Shown here piece after piece: positions 4,626 to 64,000 of a DNA stretch of 64,000 nucleotides. Origin of the DNA: Leptospira biflexa (GTDB lineage: Bacteria > Spirochaetota > DYNZ01); the NCBI GenBank assembly GCA_020720805.1, contig DYNZ01000003.1, forward strand, positions 35,927-99,926. Reading direction: 5' to 3'. Each line of letters starts with the position of its first letter. The first letter of the stretch is position 1. The notes below the pieces were generated by a model, which saw only the letters and a program-made list of their open reading frames with translations, was not told the origin of the DNA and did not search any database. Both the position numbers and the translations under genes were made by a program.

Positions 4626-5944
4626 TGTACTCCTTCTATACTATCTTATTTGCCTGTTTGCTTTTCGCTCTACGATTGATAGCCCTTTTTCATAGGAACG
4701 TCGGCCTGATTTTCTGCATGCGGAGAAATGTATTCGAAAAAAGTCAAGCGCTGCGAATTCAATTTCCAAACCATAAGCTAATGATTTTTCATGGGGCGTC
4801 AGTCGGCGAATTGATGCAGCTCCTGCCTGTTGCGCAGGCCTGGAGTAAGGAAAAGCCTCGCCAGGAAAAGATCCTATTTTTGTTTACCTTTTTTTCGCCC
4901 TCGGCGTTGCCGTTCACGGCCAAATGGGAGGAGGAGGGGTTATATCATTTCTTGCCTCTTCCCCTGGATTGCCCCAAAACGATAAAGAGGTGGCTTTCAA
5001 TACTAAAGCCAACCCTTTTTTTGACAGCGAGTTATGAGATATGGCCTAATCTGTTTCGCTCCCTGAGGCAAGCGAGGGTGCCAAGTGGGATTATCTCCGC
5101 TTTGCATCGCGAAAACTCAGGACAGTTTACCGGGTGGTACTCCTGGTTTTTTCGAGAGGTTTTACGGGAATTGTCCTTTGTGGATGCTGTAGATTCCCAG
5201 CATCAGCGCCGTTTTCAGGATTTTATCAATTCAACTATTCCCGTCTTTGCATCGGGAGATTCTCGTTGTGATTATATTGCGCAGCAGATGAAAATGCAAA
5301 AAACAAAAAATCAATCTGAGGATAGGTTGTTGCTGCAGGAGCAATTTCACTCCTGGTACAGAAAGATAAAAACAAAGAGGCGCATATTAATATTGGCCAG
5401 CACCTATGCTTCCTGTGAGCAGGTTATTTTCCCCCAGCTTCCTGAGTTGCTGGTAAAGTTTCCACAGTTAAATGTTATCGTTGTTCCCCATAAAATCGAC
5501 AGGCCGCGAATCGATGAGGTTCGTCAATCCCTGAACCAGCTTCAGATCTCTTTTTGTAGTTTGCATCAACCTGAATCCGGGTTTACTCGTGTATTTATTG
5601 TCGATGCACTTGGGATTTTGCTGCATCTGTATCGGTATGCTCACCTTGTTTTTGTTGGCGGGAGTTTTCACTATCGCATCCATAATGTGTATGAACCAGC
5701 CGCACACGGTGCAGCGCTGGCGTTTGGACCCAAAAATAAAAATTCTCCGGAGGCGCAACGGCTTATCCAGGCGGGCGGAGCCAGAGAGGTGGGCTCTGGA
5801 GAAGAATTTTTTCAGTGGGTACATGATCTGATGCGGGATTCCCAAATGGTTCGTTCCTTAGGGCAAAAAAATCAATTGGAGTTTCGGAAAAATCTGGGAG
5901 CATCAGAAAAAATGGTTCGGAATATAAAAAGTTTACAGATTTAA
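4622..5944 (+). CDS. waaA: 3-deoxy-D-manno-octulosonic acid (Kdo) transferase
   Basis: 440 aa. N-terminal membrane anchor, conserved FHGASVGE motif and glycosyltransferase C-terminal half. Overlaps pyrF by 4 bp. Confidence 0.85.
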   Translation: MMYSFYTILFACLLFALRLIALFHRNVGLIFCMRRNVFEKSQALRIQFPNHKLMIFHGASVGELMQLLPVAQAWSKEKPRQEKILFLFTFFSPSALPFTAKWEEEGLYHFLPLPLDCPKTIKRWLSILKPTLFLTASYEIWPNLFRSLRQARVPSGIISALHRENSGQFTGWYSWFFREVLRELSFVDAVDSQHQRRFQDFINSTIPVFASGDSRCDYIAQQMKMQKTKNQSEDRLLLQEQFHSWYRKIKTKRRILILASTYASCEQVIFPQLPELLVKFPQLNVIVVPHKIDRPRIDEVRQSLNQLQISFCSLHQPESGFTRVFIVDALGILLHLYRYAHLVFVGGSFHYRIHNVYEPAAHGAALAFGPKNKNSPEAQRLIQAGGAREVGSGEEFFQWVHDLMRDSQMVRSLGQKNQLEFRKNLGASEKMVRNIKSLQI

Positions 5945-6969
5945 TGCAAATTATCATGAACTATCCTAATCTGCCACTCAAAGCACGGATTCGCCAATTG
6001 GCTTTCCAATTTGGTTTTTCGGCCATGGGGGTTTCAGATATCGCAGAAGTTCCACGTTTGCCTGAATTTGACCAATGGCTGGATAGGAAATTGTATGGAG
6101 ATATGACATGGCTGCTTCGGCATCGGCAGCTTCGCCGCGATCCGCGTCATCTGTTTGCAGATGTTAAGAGCGTGATTAGCTTTGCATTGCCTTATGCGAA
6201 ATTGGCGAGCTCGTCTTCGTATTCTATTGCCGCGTATGCCCGGTATTATAGCTACCATGAGGCCATTTTTTCTGCACTAACAGAGATTCTGACCCAACTA
6301 AAGGGAGAATTTCCCGAAATTCACGGACGTGTCATAGTGGATTCTGCACCTCTTGATGAGAGAGCGTGGGCCGCAAAGTCAGGATTGGGTTTTATTGGTA
6401 AAAATAATCTTTTAATAACAGAACGGAACGGTTCTTATGTTTTATTAGGCGAATTGCTGATCAATCAAGAGCTGGAATCAGATTCGCAACAGAACCCCAT
6501 GCAGGTAAATTGTGCCAACTGCGATGCCTGCATCCGCGCTTGTCCGACAGGCGCTCTCCAAGCCTATGAATTGAATGCCGCACTTTGCATCTCCCATAGG
6601 ACGATCGAAAGGAAGCAAAAGAGGCTTGAGGGCGATGAACCGCAGGTATATGGTTGGGTTTTTGGCTGTGATCAATGTCTGCTTGCTTGCCCCTATAACC
6701 ACATGGCTCACCACACATCACTGGAAATTCATCCACTATTTCAAAACATCCAGGATGAGGGATCCAGTTTTGCAGACTATTTTAATGATGTCTCAGAAGT
6801 GGATTTTCATCAAAAATTCGAACATTCGGAACTATTGCGCAGCGGTTATCGAAAAATTTTGGAAAATATCCAGATTGTAAAGAGGCAATCCATAGGGCAA
6901 CAGGCTGACAGTTCCGGCTTTTTCCTAGCAAAAGGAGAGAAAAGCGGCTTTTGGGCCTCTTTGAATTAA
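5944..6969 (+). CDS. queG: epoxyqueuosine reductase (tRNA queuosine biosynthesis)
   Basis: 341 aa. Two 4Fe-4S ferredoxin-type Cys clusters (CANCDACIRACP ... GCDQCLLACP) and a QueG-like N-terminal half. Confidence 0.8.
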   Translation: MQIIMNYPNLPLKARIRQLAFQFGFSAMGVSDIAEVPRLPEFDQWLDRKLYGDMTWLLRHRQLRRDPRHLFADVKSVISFALPYAKLASSSSYSIAAYARYYSYHEAIFSALTEILTQLKGEFPEIHGRVIVDSAPLDERAWAAKSGLGFIGKNNLLITERNGSYVLLGELLINQELESDSQQNPMQVNCANCDACIRACPTGALQAYELNAALCISHRTIERKQKRLEGDEPQVYGWVFGCDQCLLACPYNHMAHHTSLEIHPLFQNIQDEGSSFADYFNDVSEVDFHQKFEHSELLRSGYRKILENIQIVKRQSIGQQADSSGFFLAKGEKSGFWASLN

Positions 6970-53627: not shown

Positions 53628-53815
53628 CGCTTCTCTTCTATGTTGTTAGTTTCCAATTTGACAGATTTTTTTGCCTTTTAAATCATTTTTATTAATTTAT
53701 TTGAATAATAACTGATTTTTTTCGTTTTTATTATAAGCAGCTAACCTAATGGTTTTTTATGTGAATGAGGATCTTACAAAAAATTTTCCATATATACCGA
53801 AAAAAATTCGGTCGA

Positions 53816-53844
53816 CTCACACGATGTGAGGAGTGCGAAGAGCA
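53816..53844. repeat. copy A of a ~29-bp conserved element containing the palindrome CTCACA-cga-TGTGAG
   Basis: 26 of 29 positions identical to copy B (62730-62758). Lies ~300 bp upstream of the HD-GYP regulator gene. A related second half-element, GCACTTTCTTCGCAGTATAAATC, sits at 54082-54104. Confidence 0.6.
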
Positions 53845-54120
53845 GGATTGCTCAAGTGTCGATTTTGCTAGGGCAGCAAAAAATCGACCCGGATTTGACA
53901 GGGCAGCTTTTTGTGACGTCCTGTCACAGCTGCATAAGTTACATCCTGTAACTCAGATGTCAAAAATCCGATCCCATGGCATCGCCTTGGGAGACCAAAG
54001 CTTTTTGGATAATGAAACTTTTGCTTAACTTAGTTTATCCCGAGCGTTGTCGAGGGATCGAAGCACTAGAAAGGGCGAAAAGCACTTTCTTCGCAGTATA
54101 AATCAAGGTCAGAACAAGAT

Positions 54121-55205
54121 ATGATTCGAAAGCCAATACAAACCCTTATCAAGCAGGCATCCATTCTCATCGTTGACGATCAGATGACAAATATTGTGTT
54201 GTTAGAGAAGATTCTGCGCTCGGACGGTTACCAGAATATTACCTCCACAACGCAACCCATAGATGTTCTGGAACTATATATGGCAAATCAGTTTGATATT
54301 GTTTTACTTGATCTGGAAATGCCCCGGTTGAATGGCTTTGAGGTTTTGGAACAACTTCAGAATTTTGAGAGAGACAATTATGTTCCTGTCCTTGTGGTAA
54401 CTGCCCAGAGCGAAGAGGACATTCGCCTTCAGGCACTGCAGCAGGGAGCCAAGGATTTTATCACCAAACCCTACAATAGTCTGGAGGTTTTAAACCGGAC
54501 CCGAAATATGATCGAGGTGCGCATTCTCAATAAGCAGCTTTTGAATCAAAATCGTATCCTGGAAGAGCGGGTTCTGGCGAGAACCCAGGAGCTGGAGAAT
54601 ACCCGTTTTGAGGTGATTCAGCGTTTAGCCAGAGCCGCGGAATACCGTGATCAGGAGACCGGCAACCATATTTTGAGGATGAGCCACGTAAGCAGGCTTT
54701 TGGCAGAGAAGTTGGGATGGCAGCAATATGATCTGGAGGTTATTTAAATGCGAGTTCACTTCATGATATAGGTAAAATTGGGATTCCTGACAAAATCCTA
54801 CTGAAATCAGGTCCGCTTGATCCGCAGGAATGGGAGATTATGAAGACTCATGTTATCATTGGAGCGGAAATTATGGAAAATGCAAGCCATACACTGCTGC
54901 AGATGGCAAAGACCATTGCCTTAACCCATCATGAAAAGTGGGATGGTAGCGGGTATCCCTTTGGACTCAAGGGAGAAGAAATTCCTATGGCAGGCAGGAT
55001 TGCTGCGCTTGCGGATGTGTTTGATGCTCTCTTATCTGTAAGACCATATAAGAGATCCTGGTCTCTTGACGAAGCGGTGACGGAGATAAAAAACCAGAGC
55101 GGGCGGCATTTTGATCCTCGCTTGGTGGATATCTTTTTGGAAAACCAGGTGGCTATTCTTGCTATTTATCAGAAATTTCGTGATAGTAGTTTAGAAAATG
55201 GATAG
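54121..55205 (+). pseudogene. REC-HD-GYP response regulator (RpfG-like c-di-GMP phosphodiesterase) interrupted by a single-nucleotide frameshift
   Basis: ORF 54121-54747 (frame 1) encodes the REC domain and the start of HD-GYP, then hits TAA at 54745. The HD-GYP signature LHDIGKIGIPDKILLK is readable in frame 3 from 54747 and continues into ORF 54840-55205 (HHEKWDGSGYP). The frames join with a 1-nt indel in TATTTAAAT (54741-54749). Confidence 0.8.
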
Positions 55206-60172: not shown

Positions 60173-62404
60173 TTACATCGCGTCTATGATCGCGTTCAAG
60201 GTTGGACTTGGACGCATCGCCTTGGTGACTTTGGCATGGTCGACATGGTAATAGCCTCCCATATCAACGGGTTTGCCTTGCGCAGCGAGAAGCTCTGTAT
60301 TAATCTTTGCTTCATTCTCTTCTAGCTGTTTGGCCACCTTGGCAAAACGCTCTTTCATCTGCTGATCCTTGGTTTGAGCAGCCAGAGCCTGAGCCCAATA
60401 CAATGCCAGATAGAAATGACTTCCCCGGTTATCGATCTCTCCCACTTTTCTAGCTGGAGATTTTTCGTTTTCGAGAAATTTTCCAATGGCTTCATCAAGG
60501 GTGTCAGCCAACAACTGAGCCTTATCATTCTTATAGTTTGCAGCTACCAGTTCCAGAGAGGGAACAAGTGCGCAGAATTCACCCAGTGAATCCCAACGCA
60601 GATATCCCTCTTTTTGGAACTGTTGGACGTGCTTAGGAGCGGAGCCGCCTGCACCAGTTTCAAAAAGACCACCACCTTCCAGTAGAGGGACAATCGATAA
60701 CATTTTCGCGCTGGTGCCAAGCTCGAGGATGGGGAAAAGGTCAGTCAGGTAGTCGCGGAGAACGTTTCCGGTCACAGAGATAGTGTCTAACCCTTTTCTG
60801 ATTCTCTCCAGGGAGTAGTGCATCGCTTCTACCGGAGCCATAATCTTAATTTCGAGGCCATTGGTATCATGGTTTTTCAGGTATTTATTTACCTTTGCGA
60901 TAACTTGGGTATCATGAGCCCTATTGGTATCCAACCAGAAAATAGCTGGCGTTTTGCTTGCTTTCGCGCGGTTGACTGCCAGTTTTACCCAATCCTGGAT
61001 CGGAATATCCTTTACACGGTAGAGTCTCCAAATATCGCCTTGCTCTACTTTGCTCTCCATGAGAATTTTTCCGGATCCATCCACTACCTTGACAACGCCA
61101 TCACCAGCCATTTCAAATGTGGTTGGATGTGAGCCGTACTCTTCTGCTTTTTGTGCCATCAAGCCGACATTGGAAACACTACCCATGGTTGCAGGGTTAA
61201 ATTGCCCATTCTTCTGAGCGTCCTTGATAATTTCACGGTAAATCGTTGCGTAGCAACGGTCTGGAATCATGGCGATGGTATCATGCAGTTTATCGTCTGG
61301 TCCCCACATCTGTCCGCCATCACGTACCACGACTGGCATGGAAGCATCGACAATGATATCATTTGGGACATGAAGGTTTGTGATGCCCTTGCTGGAATCA
61401 ACCATTGCCAGAGCTGGTCTTTCATTGTAAACAGCGTTGATATCCTTTTCGATCTCGGCTTTTTTATCAGCAGGCAGTTTGCTGAGTTTAGACAGGATAT
61501 CGCCAAGGCCAAAATTTGGGTTGGCTCCGATCTGCTTCAGGGTTTCACCATGCTTTTTGAACACATCTTCATAATAGACAGATACAGCATGGCCAAACAT
61601 GATGGGATCAGAAACCTTCATCATGGTTGCCTTGAGGTGCAGAGAAAGCAGAACGTTCTCTTTTTTTGCTTCCACGATGGTATCCGCATAAAATTTTCGC
61701 AGAGCATTTTTACTGATAAAGGAGCAAGATAAGATCTCACCTTTTTCAGCGGTTAATTTGTCAGCAAGTACTTTGGAACTGCCATCTTTCCCTGCAAACT
61801 CAATCTTGAATGCTCCCCCATTCTCCATGGTAACCGATTTTTCATTGCCATAGAAGTCGCCGCTGTTCATGTGAGCGACCTTGGTCTTCGAGTTGTCGGG
61901 ATAGGGGCGCATCATGCGGTGAGGGTTCTTTTGGCCGAATTTTTTAACAGAAGCTGCGGCGCGGCGATCAGAGTTTCCTTCCCGTAGAACAGGGTTTACG
62001 GCAGAGCCCAGAACCTTGGAATAGCGCTGCTGGATCTCTTTTTCTGCGTCTGTTTTTGCCTCTTCAGGATAGGCCGGCAGATCATAACCTTGCTCCTGCA
62101 ACTCTTTGATTGCGGCTTGAAGCTGAGGAATGGAAGCGCTGATATTCGGCAATTTTATAATGTTCGCGTCAGGTGTTTTGGCAAGCTCACCCAATTGGGT
62201 TAAAAAATCGGGAATTTGCTGGCCTGGCTTCAGCCTTTCAGGAAATGTTGCAATGATGCGACCGGATAATGAGATGTCTCGAGTTTCTACATCAACACCA
62301 GTCCCTTTTGTAAAGACCTGCACAATGGGGAGCAGAGAAAAAGTTGCCAAAGCTGGCCCTTCATCAATCTCTGTCCAGATGATTTTTGCATTTTTATTTG
62401 CCAT
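60173..62404 (-). CDS. icd: monomeric NADP-dependent isocitrate dehydrogenase
   Basis: 743 aa, the typical size and N-terminal sequence of monomeric-type IDH ([22 protein letters not shown]...). Confidence 0.9.
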
Positions 62405-62729
62405 ATCTTCTCCTTGGTTATTATAATACTGAAATTTTTTTGTATCTTTCCGGGCTTTCCTGGTAGGTCATTTCGATGCTGAGGTTCCATTTGAAACAAA
62501 GCCAATATCAGTCCGATACAAAGCAAAGACATTCCAATGATCTGAAGCCGCAGAAAAAAGGCACAGCTTCGATTTTGTGTAACATTTTTGAGGCCTAAAA
62601 TCATATTTTTCTCCATAGTGTCAAGAACTTTGAAGCAAACAGACAAATACTCATCGGATTGGAACATCAGGGCTCAGAAAATTATAAAGAGGTTGTTGTG
62701 ACCTTAAACCGAAATGAAATTGGTGGAAG

Positions 62730-62780
62730 GTCACACGATGTGAGGTGTGCGAAGGGCACTTTCCTTGCAGAATAGAAATC
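62730..62780. repeat. copy B of the conserved palindrome-containing element, with the second half-element adjacent
   Basis: GTCACACGATGTGAGGTGTGCGAAGGGCA (62730-62758) is immediately followed by GCACTTTCCTTGCAGAATAGAAATC (62756-62780). Located 80-130 bp upstream of purH. Confidence 0.6.
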
Positions 62781-62860
62781 GGTTGCAAAAAACCCTTAGT
62801 CAGAAAAAGTTGTAAAAAGGTACAAAAAAAAAGTATAATAAGGAATAATTAGAAAAGGAA

Positions 62861-64000
62861 ATGGGTATGATAAAGATTAAAAGGGCTTTGATCTCTGTTT
62901 GGGACAAGCACAACCTTGAAGAGTTGGTAAAAACTTTGGCCCACCACAATGTCGAGATTATCTCAACAGGAGGTACTCTTCAGAAGATCCGTGAAATGGG
63001 CGTAGAGGTGCATTCCATTGGGAAATTTACCCAATTTCCAGAGATGCTCGATGGGCGAGTCAAAACGTTACATCCCAAAGTTCATGGCGGCATTTTGCAT
63101 ATGCGCGATAACGAAGAGCATCTAAAGCAGATCCTGGAGCATAGTATCGTTCCCATTGATCTTGTGGTGGTAAATTTATACCCCTTTGTTCAAACTATAT
63201 CGCAGCAGGATGTAACGTTTGAGGATGCGATCGAGAATATTGATATTGGCGGCCCTACGATGTTGCGCGCAGCTGCAAAAAATCATAAATTTGTGGCTGC
63301 TTTGATGCATCCTCAGGATTATCCAAAAATTATTGAGGAATTAAATAAAAATCAGGGAGCCTTAAGCCATGAAACCAGGTTTGAATTGGCGCGAAAGGTT
63401 TTTAATTATACCGCATCCTATGATGCGGCCATTTCTGCGTACCTGAATGATCTTCAAGGAGAGGGACAACCCCGTTATCTCAATCTGGCTTTTGAGAAGA
63501 GACAGGAGTTGCGCTATGGAGAGAACCCTCACCAGAAAGCCACATTGTATGCGGATCAGCTCAGCAAAGAGGGGAGTCTTGTAAACGCCCAGCAACTCCA
63601 AGGAAAAGAGCTTTCTTTTAATAATTTGCTGGATTTTGATGCTGCCCTGAATATTGTGCAGGAGTTTGCCGAGCCTTGTGTGGTGATTATCAAACACAAT
63701 AATCCAGCAGGAGTTGCTATCGGTGAAAATAATACATCCTTGGCAGATGTGTTTGCAGATGCCTGGTCCTGTGACCCTGTTAGCGCATTTGGCTCCATTA
63801 TTGCCATCAATCGTGAGGTAGATAGGGCGACGGCAGATCTTGTGAATCAATATTTTGTCGAGGGGATCATCGCGCCCTCTTTTTCTACCCAGGCGCTAGA
63901 TGTTTTGGGCAAAAAAAAGAATATTCGGTTACTGGCTACTGGGCACCCCTTGCGGGCTGCAAAGCATTATGATGTCAAAAGGATTAACGGAGGGATCCTT
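62861..64000 (+). CDS. purH: bifunctional AICAR transformylase / IMP cyclohydrolase (5' partial, runs off the window end)
   Basis: N-terminal MGS-like domain motifs (RALISVWDK, STGGT, DGRVKTLHPKVHGGIL). The ORF has no stop within the window and so is absent from the ORF track. Confidence 0.85.
   Translation, partial: MGMIKIKRALISVWDKHNLEELVKTLAHHNVEIISTGGTLQKIREMGVEVHSIGKFTQFPEMLDGRVKTLHPKVHGGILHMRDNEEHLKQILEHSIVPIDLVVVNLYPFVQTISQQDVTFEDAIENIDIGGPTMLRAAAKNHKFVAALMHPQDYPKIIEELNKNQGALSHETRFELARKVFNYTASYDAAISAYLNDLQGEGQPRYLNLAFEKRQELRYGENPHQKATLYADQLSKEGSLVNAQQLQGKELSFNNLLDFDAALNIVQEFAEPCVVIIKHNNPAGVAIGENNTSLADVFADAWSCDPVSAFGSIIAINREVDRATADLVNQYFVEGIIAPSFSTQALDVLGKKKNIRLLATGHPLRAAKHYDVKRINGGIL

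Follow-up and report, generated by a model that had tools for sequence, protein, structure and literature searches.

BOX elements are modular, with A1C1 forms that lack boxB, a variable number of boxB units and spurious open reading frames (ORFs), and BOX, RUP and SPRITE repeats favour the gaps between convergent genes (PMC3049150). The Bacillaceae-1 motif (Rfam RF01690) is likewise multi-copy and occurs in many gene contexts, and its copies in B. subtilis and B. licheniformis have conserved flanks (PMC2864571); 8 copies are counted in B. subtilis (PMC8208703). A homodimeric protein was proposed as the binding partner of Bacillaceae-1 by Weinberg et al. (PMC2864571), and CsrA as that of its reverse complement by Gardner and Eldai, the strand being uncertain (PMC4333381). 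Here we describe an element with likeness to both systems in a stretch of 64,000 nucleotides, referred to as the window, deposited under Leptospira biflexa (assembly GCA_020720805.1, contig DYNZ01000003.1, positions 35,927 to 99,926 of the forward strand). In this window, a palindrome-containing segment is shared by the upstream regions of purH and of a gene for a response regulator with receiver and HD-GYP domains (RR-HD-GYP). The two sites very probably belong to a lineage-specific and previously undescribed mosaic interspersed intergenic repeat, of which the palindrome is one module (P) and the second half-element another (R), comparable in kind to the BOX elements of Streptococcus pneumoniae and S. 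suis or to enterobacterial BIME/ERIC repeats.

The first site lies between the genes for an NfeD protease (− strand) and the receiver/HD-GYP regulator (+ strand), and the second between those for a monomeric isocitrate dehydrogenase (− strand) and PurH (+ strand). The original prediction pointed to a 29-nt segment at 53816-53844 that recurs at 62730-62758, and a repeat search of the window bore this out, with 26 of 28 matching bases (93%) between 53817-53844 and 62731-62758. Two occurrences of TCACACGATGTGAGGWGTGCGAAG were found in the window and no others, at + strand positions 53817 and 62731, and matches to a segment of this type appeared in none of 100 dinucleotide shuffles. The palindromic core proved to be a perfect inverted repeat as claimed, and could be extended to CTCACA-cga-TGTGAG (53816-53830). 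By gapped alignment, the similarity between the two sites runs upstream to about 53796 and 62708, starting from ACCGAAA. The second half-element that had been described downstream is present and longer than supposed: GGGCGAAAAGCACTTTCTTCGCAGTATAAATC (54073-54104) aligns with GTGCGAAGGGCACTTTCCTTGCAGAATAGAAATC (62747-62780) without the indels assumed earlier, while the degenerate pattern proposed for it gave no match at up to 3 mismatches, the match being recovered by gapped alignment. At the HD-GYP site the two halves are 228 nt apart, and on either side of the block between them lies one unit of a 12-nt direct repeat, GTGCGAAGAGCA (53833-53844) and GGGCGAAAAGCA (54073-54084). This repeat is imperfect (10 of 12 positions identical) and internal to the family described below. 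The small paired hairpins within this block, GTGAC-gtcct-GTCAC (53913-53927) and GTTAC-atcct-GTAAC (53938-53952), are real, and the structured nature of the region was supported by fold z scores of −5.1 and −5.3 against shuffles for 336 nt on the two strands.

The family was exposed by the translation of an 87-aa ORF (53765-54028, + strand) that runs through the first site. Its search against 1.8 billion representative proteins gave two matches (E 1.5e-10 and 1.3e-6), and both are ORFs across intergenic DNA, one mapping between exbB and tonB on contig L006, and the other between a gene of unknown function and a thiamine pyrophosphate (TPP) riboswitch with thi4 on contig L007. The DNA at the HD-GYP site and at these two loci (copies A, C and D) aligns over about 310-390 nt. 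This alignment of three DNA stretches identifies the 230 bp at the HD-GYP site, which had been taken as intervening DNA separate from the element, as the body of a long form of a repeated element, and the purH site as a short version of it.

A hidden Markov model (HMM) of the family was built from the alignment of the three long copies and run by nhmmer over about 105 kb of DNA of the organism. This comprises the window, which lies on a 99-kb contig of JGI metagenome sample 3300000234 and recurs unchanged in a 145-kb contig of the metagenome-assembled genome (MAG) GCA_974334805.1; flanking DNA of 10 kb on the left and 8.4 kb on the right; a further contig of this MAG, L006; and L007, a contig from the same sample. 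The DNA left of the window is referred to as L013, and that beyond the window end as L008. The E values were 1e-111 for copy A (a self match), 3e-104 and 9e-86 for the other long copies and 1.4e-5 for the short copy B at purH. Altogether nine copies, A to I, were found at unrelated genes, in agreement with the earlier candidate of a small dispersed repeat family. Six of the nine had not been selected for, corresponding to about 1 copy per 17 kb, and extrapolation of this density suggests about 100-200 copies per genome. All nine are located between genes, including exbB/tonB, thi4, the gene for EF-G, the pyridoxamine-phosphate (PNP) oxidase gene and genes without known function.

The 87-aa ORF itself was judged to be a spurious open frame through the repeat. 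That it encodes a small CxxC protein of a paralogous gene family receives practically no credence from us. The ORF is open and has its two database matches, but both of these are ORFs through other copies of the repeat, so that the apparent conservation at protein level comes from paralogous repeat copies. A profile search with the three ORF translations recovered the same two ORFs and nothing else, no Pfam match was obtained, and the ORF is not called as a gene in any of three annotations of the locus. The frame is not kept among copies: the P module is read as TRCEE in A and C and as SQDVR in D, and between two compensating indels A reads KNRPGFD where C reads KSTRICQ, with the DNA conserved. 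As the modules are read in differing frames, the conservation is at nucleotide level. The earlier argument from reading frames thus held as to the lack of protein-level conservation, but not in its detail, because the TRCE frame is available in the purH copy too and is merely not open upstream. The differences between A and B in the 29-mer are second-codon-position changes, a further point against a protein.

The full element of about 310 nt is composed of modules L, P, V, K, X (0-2 copies), Y and R, with the coordinates below given for copy A and '+' denoting the family orientation by convention only. The L module at the left end (53784-53812, +) was aligned in A, B, C, D and G and was also seen in H and I. 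Its hairpin ACCGAA-aaaaa-TTCGGT (53797-53813) is lost in G and D and is probably not a conserved structure. The P module (53813-53844, +), to which the originally noted 29-nt segment corresponds, contains the palindrome (53816-53830) followed by the first 12-mer of the direct repeat; its family pattern is CTCACA-sga-TGTGAG plus GGAGTGC. The V module (53845-53889, +) is present in A and C, absent from D and partly deleted in H; it has two variable hairpins, GAGCA-ggat-TGCTC (53840-53853), which overlaps the end of P, and GTCGATTTT...AAAATCGAC (53858-53888). The core, or K module (53890-53970), consists of an outer stem and two hairpins with loops GUCCU and AUCCU, which are AGGAC and AGGAU on the other strand. 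The Y module (53971-54060, +), with the sequence GGCATCGCC...ACCAAA...GGATAAYGA..., has extra hairpins or one to two X modules at its start in other copies, X being a 56-nt hairpin, GCATCGCTTCC...GGAAGCGATAC. The R module at the right end (54061-54100, +) carries the second 12-mer (54073-54084), ends in GCAGTATA and follows the family pattern ...TCGAAGCACnAGAAAGTGCGAAAAGCACTTTCTTCGCAGTATA; it forms the hairpin AGAAAGGGC-gaaaa-GCACTTTCT (54068-54090) and is kept in eight of the nine copies. The end sequences of the element are TATWCCRAAAAGAAATTGG for L and GCACTTTCTTCGCAGTATA for R.

The two end modules can pair with each other. The sequence TGCGAAGA in P (53834-53841) is perfectly complementary over 8 bp to TCTTCGCA in R (54088-54095), and in the minimum-energy fold of copy A this P/R stem closes the interior of the element into a multi-branched domain. 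The short forms bring these arms together in a local hairpin whose loop is 6 nt long. We propose that mutual complementarity of P and R would close the element into one folded domain. Copies G, E and F gave fold z scores against shuffles of −2.5 to −4.1, and copy B gave −1.1 to −1.6 over 62708-62782 and −3.6 to −4.1 over 62695-62800. Long copies are 78-93% identical to one another in P, 81-94% in K and 63-78% in R; in the flanks the identity is that of random sequence.

Copies differ in their module content. Copy A (53784-54100, +) is a long form, L-P-V-K-Y-R, which fills most of the divergent gap between nfeD and the RR-HD-GYP gene and ends about 20 nt before the regulator ATG at 54121; its left limit is accurate to within about 10 nt, TTTTCCATATAT being common to A and H. 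Long forms are also found as copy C (L006, about 6090-6450; L-P-V-K-Y-R) and as copy D (L007, about 6055-6368), which has one X and the order L-P-K-X-Y-R. Two copies are short and consist of L-P-R: copy B (62706-62775, +), upstream of a sigma-70-like purH promoter at 62810-62839, and copy G (L008 7010-7085, −, equivalent to 65320-65395), 1.3 kb past the window end. The remaining copies are partial, namely E (L006 7600-7730, −), a 3' half with Y-R; F (L007 9087-9160), the R module alone; H (L013 3134-3324, −), with L-P-K-X followed by truncation; and I (L013, about 5905-6203), with L-X-X-Y-R and neither palindrome nor core. Of all nine, copy H is the single one that touches a start codon. Its left end, by way of TTTTCCATATAT, reaches into the start codon of the opposite-strand pyridoxamine-phosphate oxidase gene (L013 3308-3320), and the repeat may there supply both the ribosome-binding region and the ATG of this gene.

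The relationship between forms can be read most directly from A and G. Copy G corresponds to copy A minus 53845-54084 (240 nt), with the junction at the 12-nt direct repeat, and a 36-mer (53809-53844) and a 20-mer (54081-54100) are free of mismatches between the two copies. By inspection, copy H joins V to K at GATTTTGC / GGATTTGC, X in D and H is flanked by GCATCGC, and X is doubled in I. As far as the sequences of these copies can tell, an origin of the forms by deletion or duplication between short internal direct repeats is more probable than the alternative of insertion. Insertion of 228 nt into a short element with a 12-bp target duplication was considered and set aside: the two 12-mers differ at 2 positions, though A and G have identical ends, and throughout the copies the second 12-mer belongs to the R module.

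An independent assembly was also inspected. In the Logan assembly of SRR1560848, contigs end within the element four times, at A (53838 and 54068), G and I, and these breaks are an independent sign of its repetitiveness. One contig stops at 53838 and has its far end in the R module of I, while another, SRR1560848_248233, spans from 54068 to the P module of G. The stop at 53838 coincides with the last 31-mer that holds the last A-specific base (53808) before the 36-mer common to A and G, matching the prediction for k=31. The break at 54068 lies 5 nt before the direct repeat of the R module and is not accounted for by any of the nine copies; that sample may contain another, nearly identical long copy or a variant strain at this locus.

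Dispersed intergenic copies, a modular build and extensive predicted folding, the hallmarks of a mosaic repeat, are all found here, and the comparison with BOX can be carried further. Both families have fixed end modules with a variable interior, short forms made of the ends only (A1C1 versus L-P-R), an internal module in tandem from none to several (boxB versus X), end modules that pair, and strong predicted folding. Both are intergenic and multi-copy, give rise to spurious ORFs and are nearly absent from related genera (PMC3049150). The two differ in that there is no sequence similarity, the present element is about twice as long and belongs to another phylum, inverted repeats are clearer at the ends of BOX, and the conserved double hairpin in the interior is without a BOX counterpart. 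Under the mosaic-repeat reading, the family would have spread by non-autonomous mobility or by recombination, as its dispersal suggests, and deletions between internal direct repeats would yield the short L-P-R, core-less and truncated forms. Copies co-transcribed with their neighbours would act at RNA level as stable stem-loop domains, and almost all of the leader or promoter region upstream of RR-HD-GYP would consist of copy A.

Several observations weigh against the mosaic-repeat reading. Terminal inverted repeats are not significant (p of about 0.07-0.3 per copy, the value being reached by 36-156 of 500 shuffles). No shared or duplicated sequence that would represent a target-site duplication surrounds copies A, B, C, D, G and I, and neither a transposase nor a partner insertion sequence was found in the 105 kb, or about 3% of a single genome. 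Divergent gaps hold five of the nine copies, unlike BOX, RUP and SPRITE with their preference for convergent gaps; other copies sit in convergent or co-directional gaps. The core is much better conserved than the rest, and the long copies could for this reason be functional RNA genes. All copies come from one population, and the contig with copies D and F (L007) was assigned by sample and composition only (GC 0.46; tetranucleotide r = 0.93 against the window).

The first three of these points also bear on the view that the element is a classical miniature inverted-repeat transposable element (MITE), derived from an insertion sequence by deletion and moved in trans by a transposase from another part of the genome, with L-P-R as the minimal mobile unit and the long forms carrying passenger modules. 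Such an element would be multi-copy, intergenic, shorter than 400 nt, strongly folded and complementary near its ends, as observed; the left end TATACCGAAAAGAAATTGG weakly resembles the reverse complement of the right end TATACTGCGAAGAAAGTGC, and the identical end modules of A and G imply recent copying. Besides the lack of significant terminal repeats in any copy, of target-site duplications and of a partner element, however, the 5'- and 3'-truncated copies and the variation in tandem modules are more typical of mosaic repeats. We keep the classical MITE as a tentative and unlikely reading.

The distribution of the family outside this organism was also tested. The relatives are remote, since the nearest one among about 15 billion proteins shows 63% identity in NfeD and 70% in valyl-tRNA synthetase (ValRS), and this distance makes comparative genomics between species nearly impossible. 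All named ValRS relatives are MAGs of Spirochaetota (52-55% identity), and L006 points to a diderm host, as it encodes TonB/ExbBD and a TonB-dependent receptor. No copy of the family was found at purH or elsewhere in 40 kb of the nearest relative; a marginal nhmmer match (E of about 0.1) in L005, the one syntenic relative (63% identity), is a different hairpin. A scan of a genome collection for TCACANNNTGTGAGGNGTGCGAAG gave one chance match in a GC-rich coding region of Oribacterium, and two metagenome scans and one viral scan with the P and core patterns gave 0 matches, the source contig being evidently outside those collections.

The palindrome had been put forward as a candidate operator shared by the HD-GYP regulator gene and purH. 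As an operator, TCACA-N3-TGTGA would co-regulate purH, the HD-GYP regulator and other genes, and it has in its favour that the perfect palindrome is kept in six copies and that it lies 30-70 nt upstream of a sigma-70-like promoter in B and G. Against this, the similarity extends over more than 300 nt with a common module order, so that the site is an end module of an element of about 310 nt occurring in long, short and truncated forms. The loop of the palindrome varies (CGA, GGA, AGGAG) while its stem is kept, a pattern of hairpins and not of a half-site spacer. The flanking genes are functionally unrelated, the distance to the start codon in long copies ranges from about 290 to more than 700 nt, and the site is missing at purH in L005, where the syntenic upstream region is without the motif. 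Altogether the operator is very improbable, and the palindrome, as a module of the repeat, implies no co-regulation of purH and the HD-GYP regulator.

Other features were noted in the icd-purH gap. A 126-aa ORF (62287-62667, −) that overlaps it is without Pfam match, is not called in other annotations and is probably not a gene, in which case the gap is 462 nt long. Two blocks of the gap are kept in L005, GTGTCAAGAACTTTGA (62619-62634) and AAATCGGTTGC (62776-62786), while the rest, including copy B, is not; to judge from this comparison, they are the better candidates for regulatory sites of icd or purH, and the second abuts the right end of copy B. A riboswitch or leader of purH responding to ZTP, purine or c-di-GMP was rejected, because there was no sub-threshold Rfam match in 62600-62900 and the element is upstream of separate promoters in B, D and G. 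The B. subtilis PurBox and the CRP-like TGTGA-N6-TCACA were dismissed by inspection for misfit in spacing and sequence.

Promoters and terminators were then compared among copies. No conserved sigma-70-like promoter or intrinsic terminator was found at the element ends on either strand of the copies examined. A TATACT-like hexamer, unaccompanied by a −35 box, is present at the right boundary in most copies. For the genes downstream of B, D and G, a good promoter is located beyond the element, indicating that these copies are not leaders of those genes. In copy A, which ends so close to the regulator ATG, the regulator promoter must be in or upstream of the element. Sigma-54 recognition was also considered and rejected: GGGCAC-N5-TTGCA occurs in copy B only, at chance level in the window, and no such pattern is conserved, the corresponding position being AGCAC-N5-TCGCA in A and G and AACAC-N5-TTGCA in D. 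The original suggestion of a small RNA (sRNA) or leader element thus finds no conserved promoter or terminator to support it, and is left standing for the central module only.

This central module was compared with RNA families. At the gathering threshold, Rfam gave no match across the window, and the sole match at E of 1 or less was Bacillaceae-1, at 53892-53952 (29.3 bits, E 0.24), with an alignment spanning the full model (positions 1-67). The RF01690 scores of the three long copies were 29.3 (A), 33.3 (D) and 21.9 bits (C), all below the gathering score of 35. In the core, a GGCAGC/GCTGC outer stem surrounds GTGAC-GTCCT-GTCAC and is followed by GTTAC-ATCCT-GTAAC, with loops and closing pairs as in the consensus. 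The three-stem topology is the same in both families, with the first hairpin within the outer stem and the second after it; the two RUCCU loops agree also in their closing bases (ACGUCCUGU and CAUCCUG); and both families are multi-copy in varied gene contexts, with flanks conserved between copies. Besides the scores under gathering, the differences are that the host is not a member of Bacillaceae (it is Spirochaetota-related), and that by inspection the flanking modules are without obvious similarity to the Bacillus flanks. On the sequence evidence, the K module resembles Bacillaceae-1 both in motif and as the core of a multi-copy element, which could reflect either homology or convergence on the same partner.

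The conservation of the core was also tested at the level of base pairs. With a 30-pair model of the 81-nt core, 94.4% of the cells are paired on the + strand and 96.7% on the − strand, and sliding the partners by 1-3 columns drops pairing to 25-44%. Three pairs show changes on both sides, a value reached by 18-20 of 500 shuffles, and a fourth compensatory pair, TGAC/GTCA to TGCC/GGCA, comes from copy H. The loops are GUCCU and AUCCU in A and D, and AUCCU twice in C. In H the first loop is changed to CUCCAU, leaving UCC (GGA on the other strand) as the invariant loop feature. The evidence for strand is divided. The − strand is favoured by two A.C mismatches of the core that become G.U and by the same tendency in the long-range P/R stem of copy C; the + strand is favoured by G.U pairs in three other hairpins, namely L of copy B, R of copy C and the second one of the core in copy H. 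The two strands carry similar numbers of GGA motifs, and the P loop reads GGA or AGGAG on the + strand in D and H. On the − strand, the two conserved loop GGAs are structured and the remaining GGAs are not. The sequence ACAGGAYGT occurs in the window only at the two core hairpins.

K presents a pair of UCC loops on one strand, or of GGA loops on its complement, at a spacing of 25 nt. It may be a protein-binding module, and in the proposed mechanism it would be the binding site for a dimeric protein. Spirochaetota encode CsrA. This protein, acting on the reverse strand, is the most concrete candidate for the partner, if a rather improbable one. That K is a functional protein-titrating double hairpin carried by the mosaic repeat, with a CsrA dimer on the − strand GGA loops as its likely partner and the same device in Bacillaceae, is in our estimate quite doubtful.

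A related proposal is that the long copies are paralogous genes for trans-acting sRNAs whose core titrates a dimeric RNA-binding protein, the short copies being decayed relics; this may coexist with the repeat reading. On the − strand such RNAs would be sponges of the Csr/Rsm type, with AGGAY loops 25 nt apart, and on the + strand they would be of the Bacillaceae-1 type, with RUCCU loops. The core is indeed the best conserved module and shows compensatory changes, UCC/GGA is the one loop feature that survives in the divergent copy H, the ACAGGAYGT sites are confined to the core hairpins, and all three long copies match RF01690. The closest named relatives are Spirochaetota, and the homodimer proposal of Weinberg et al. 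and the CsrA proposal of Gardner and Eldai (PMC4333381) point in the same direction.

If read on the − strand, the core would present two GGA-loop hairpins of the kind seen in sponges such as CsrB, RsmY and RsmZ, at a spacing compatible with bridging by one CsrA dimer. The known sponges differ in having 5-22 structured GGA sites versus two, and a promoter with upstream activating sequence and a terminator are both wanting here, where the sites are within a dispersed repeat. Further points against sRNA genes are that the extra base of the consensus ACARGGAUGU, from systematic evolution of ligands by exponential enrichment (SELEX), is missing, that the strand evidence conflicts, that six of the nine copies are truncated or without core, that the estimate of at least 100 copies is unlike sRNA gene families, and that nothing similar was found in 40 kb of the nearest relative. 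No csrA was detected by tblastn in the 105 kb, a result that is uninformative at about 3% of the genome. On this balance the long copies are unlikely to be sRNA genes.

Some further candidates were rejected. A type I toxin-antitoxin system was discarded since no hydrophobic small ORF is present in any frame, and diversity-generating retroelement, retron, group II intron and IS200/605 ends since no reverse transcriptase or TnpA is nearby, no Rfam match was obtained and the end hairpins are dissimilar. The scan for transfer RNA (tRNA) and transfer-messenger RNA (tmRNA) detected none.

The neighbourhood of the copies includes several features of its own. The RR-HD-GYP gene downstream of copy A (54121-55205) is split by a single-base frameshift near 54735-54750, within ATTTAAAT, a run of bases; the frame of the receiver and linker terminates at 54747, and the HD-GYP domain (ASSLHDIGKIGIPD...HHEKWDGSGYP) continues in the frame of 54681. 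Gene calls of JGI, NCBI and Logan all show the regulator split, which could represent a pseudogene, a shared sequencing error or recoding. Next to copy E, a 54-aa lysine-rich, coiled-coil-like ORF (L006 7432-7596) stops exactly at the right end of the copy, and an annotated 65-aa ORF on the other strand (L006 7669-7866), which looks spurious, crosses it. Near copy D, the TPP riboswitch upstream of thi4 (L007 6477-6566) scores 73 bits, above the gathering score, and a promoter-like TTGACA-17-GAATAT is located between this riboswitch and copy D.

For annotation, recognition of the repeat removes a false lead, the shared operator, and exposes two spurious ORFs that are already in public protein databases; it also explains contig breaks in the assemblies of this lineage. 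A modular BOX-like family is added from a deep uncultured lineage related to Spirochaetota, in which the deletion products can be read directly. The orphan Bacillaceae-1 motif gains a lead, in that a similar double hairpin exists far outside Bacillaceae with UCC/GGA surviving the divergence, and the idea of dimeric protein binding becomes testable in a second system. If K should prove to be a functional titrating hairpin, a single global RNA-binding protein would have decoy or regulatory sites in dozens to hundreds of transcripts, an orphan Rfam family would have its function and strand settled, and Csr-type titration by dispersed repeats would extend beyond Gammaproteobacteria.

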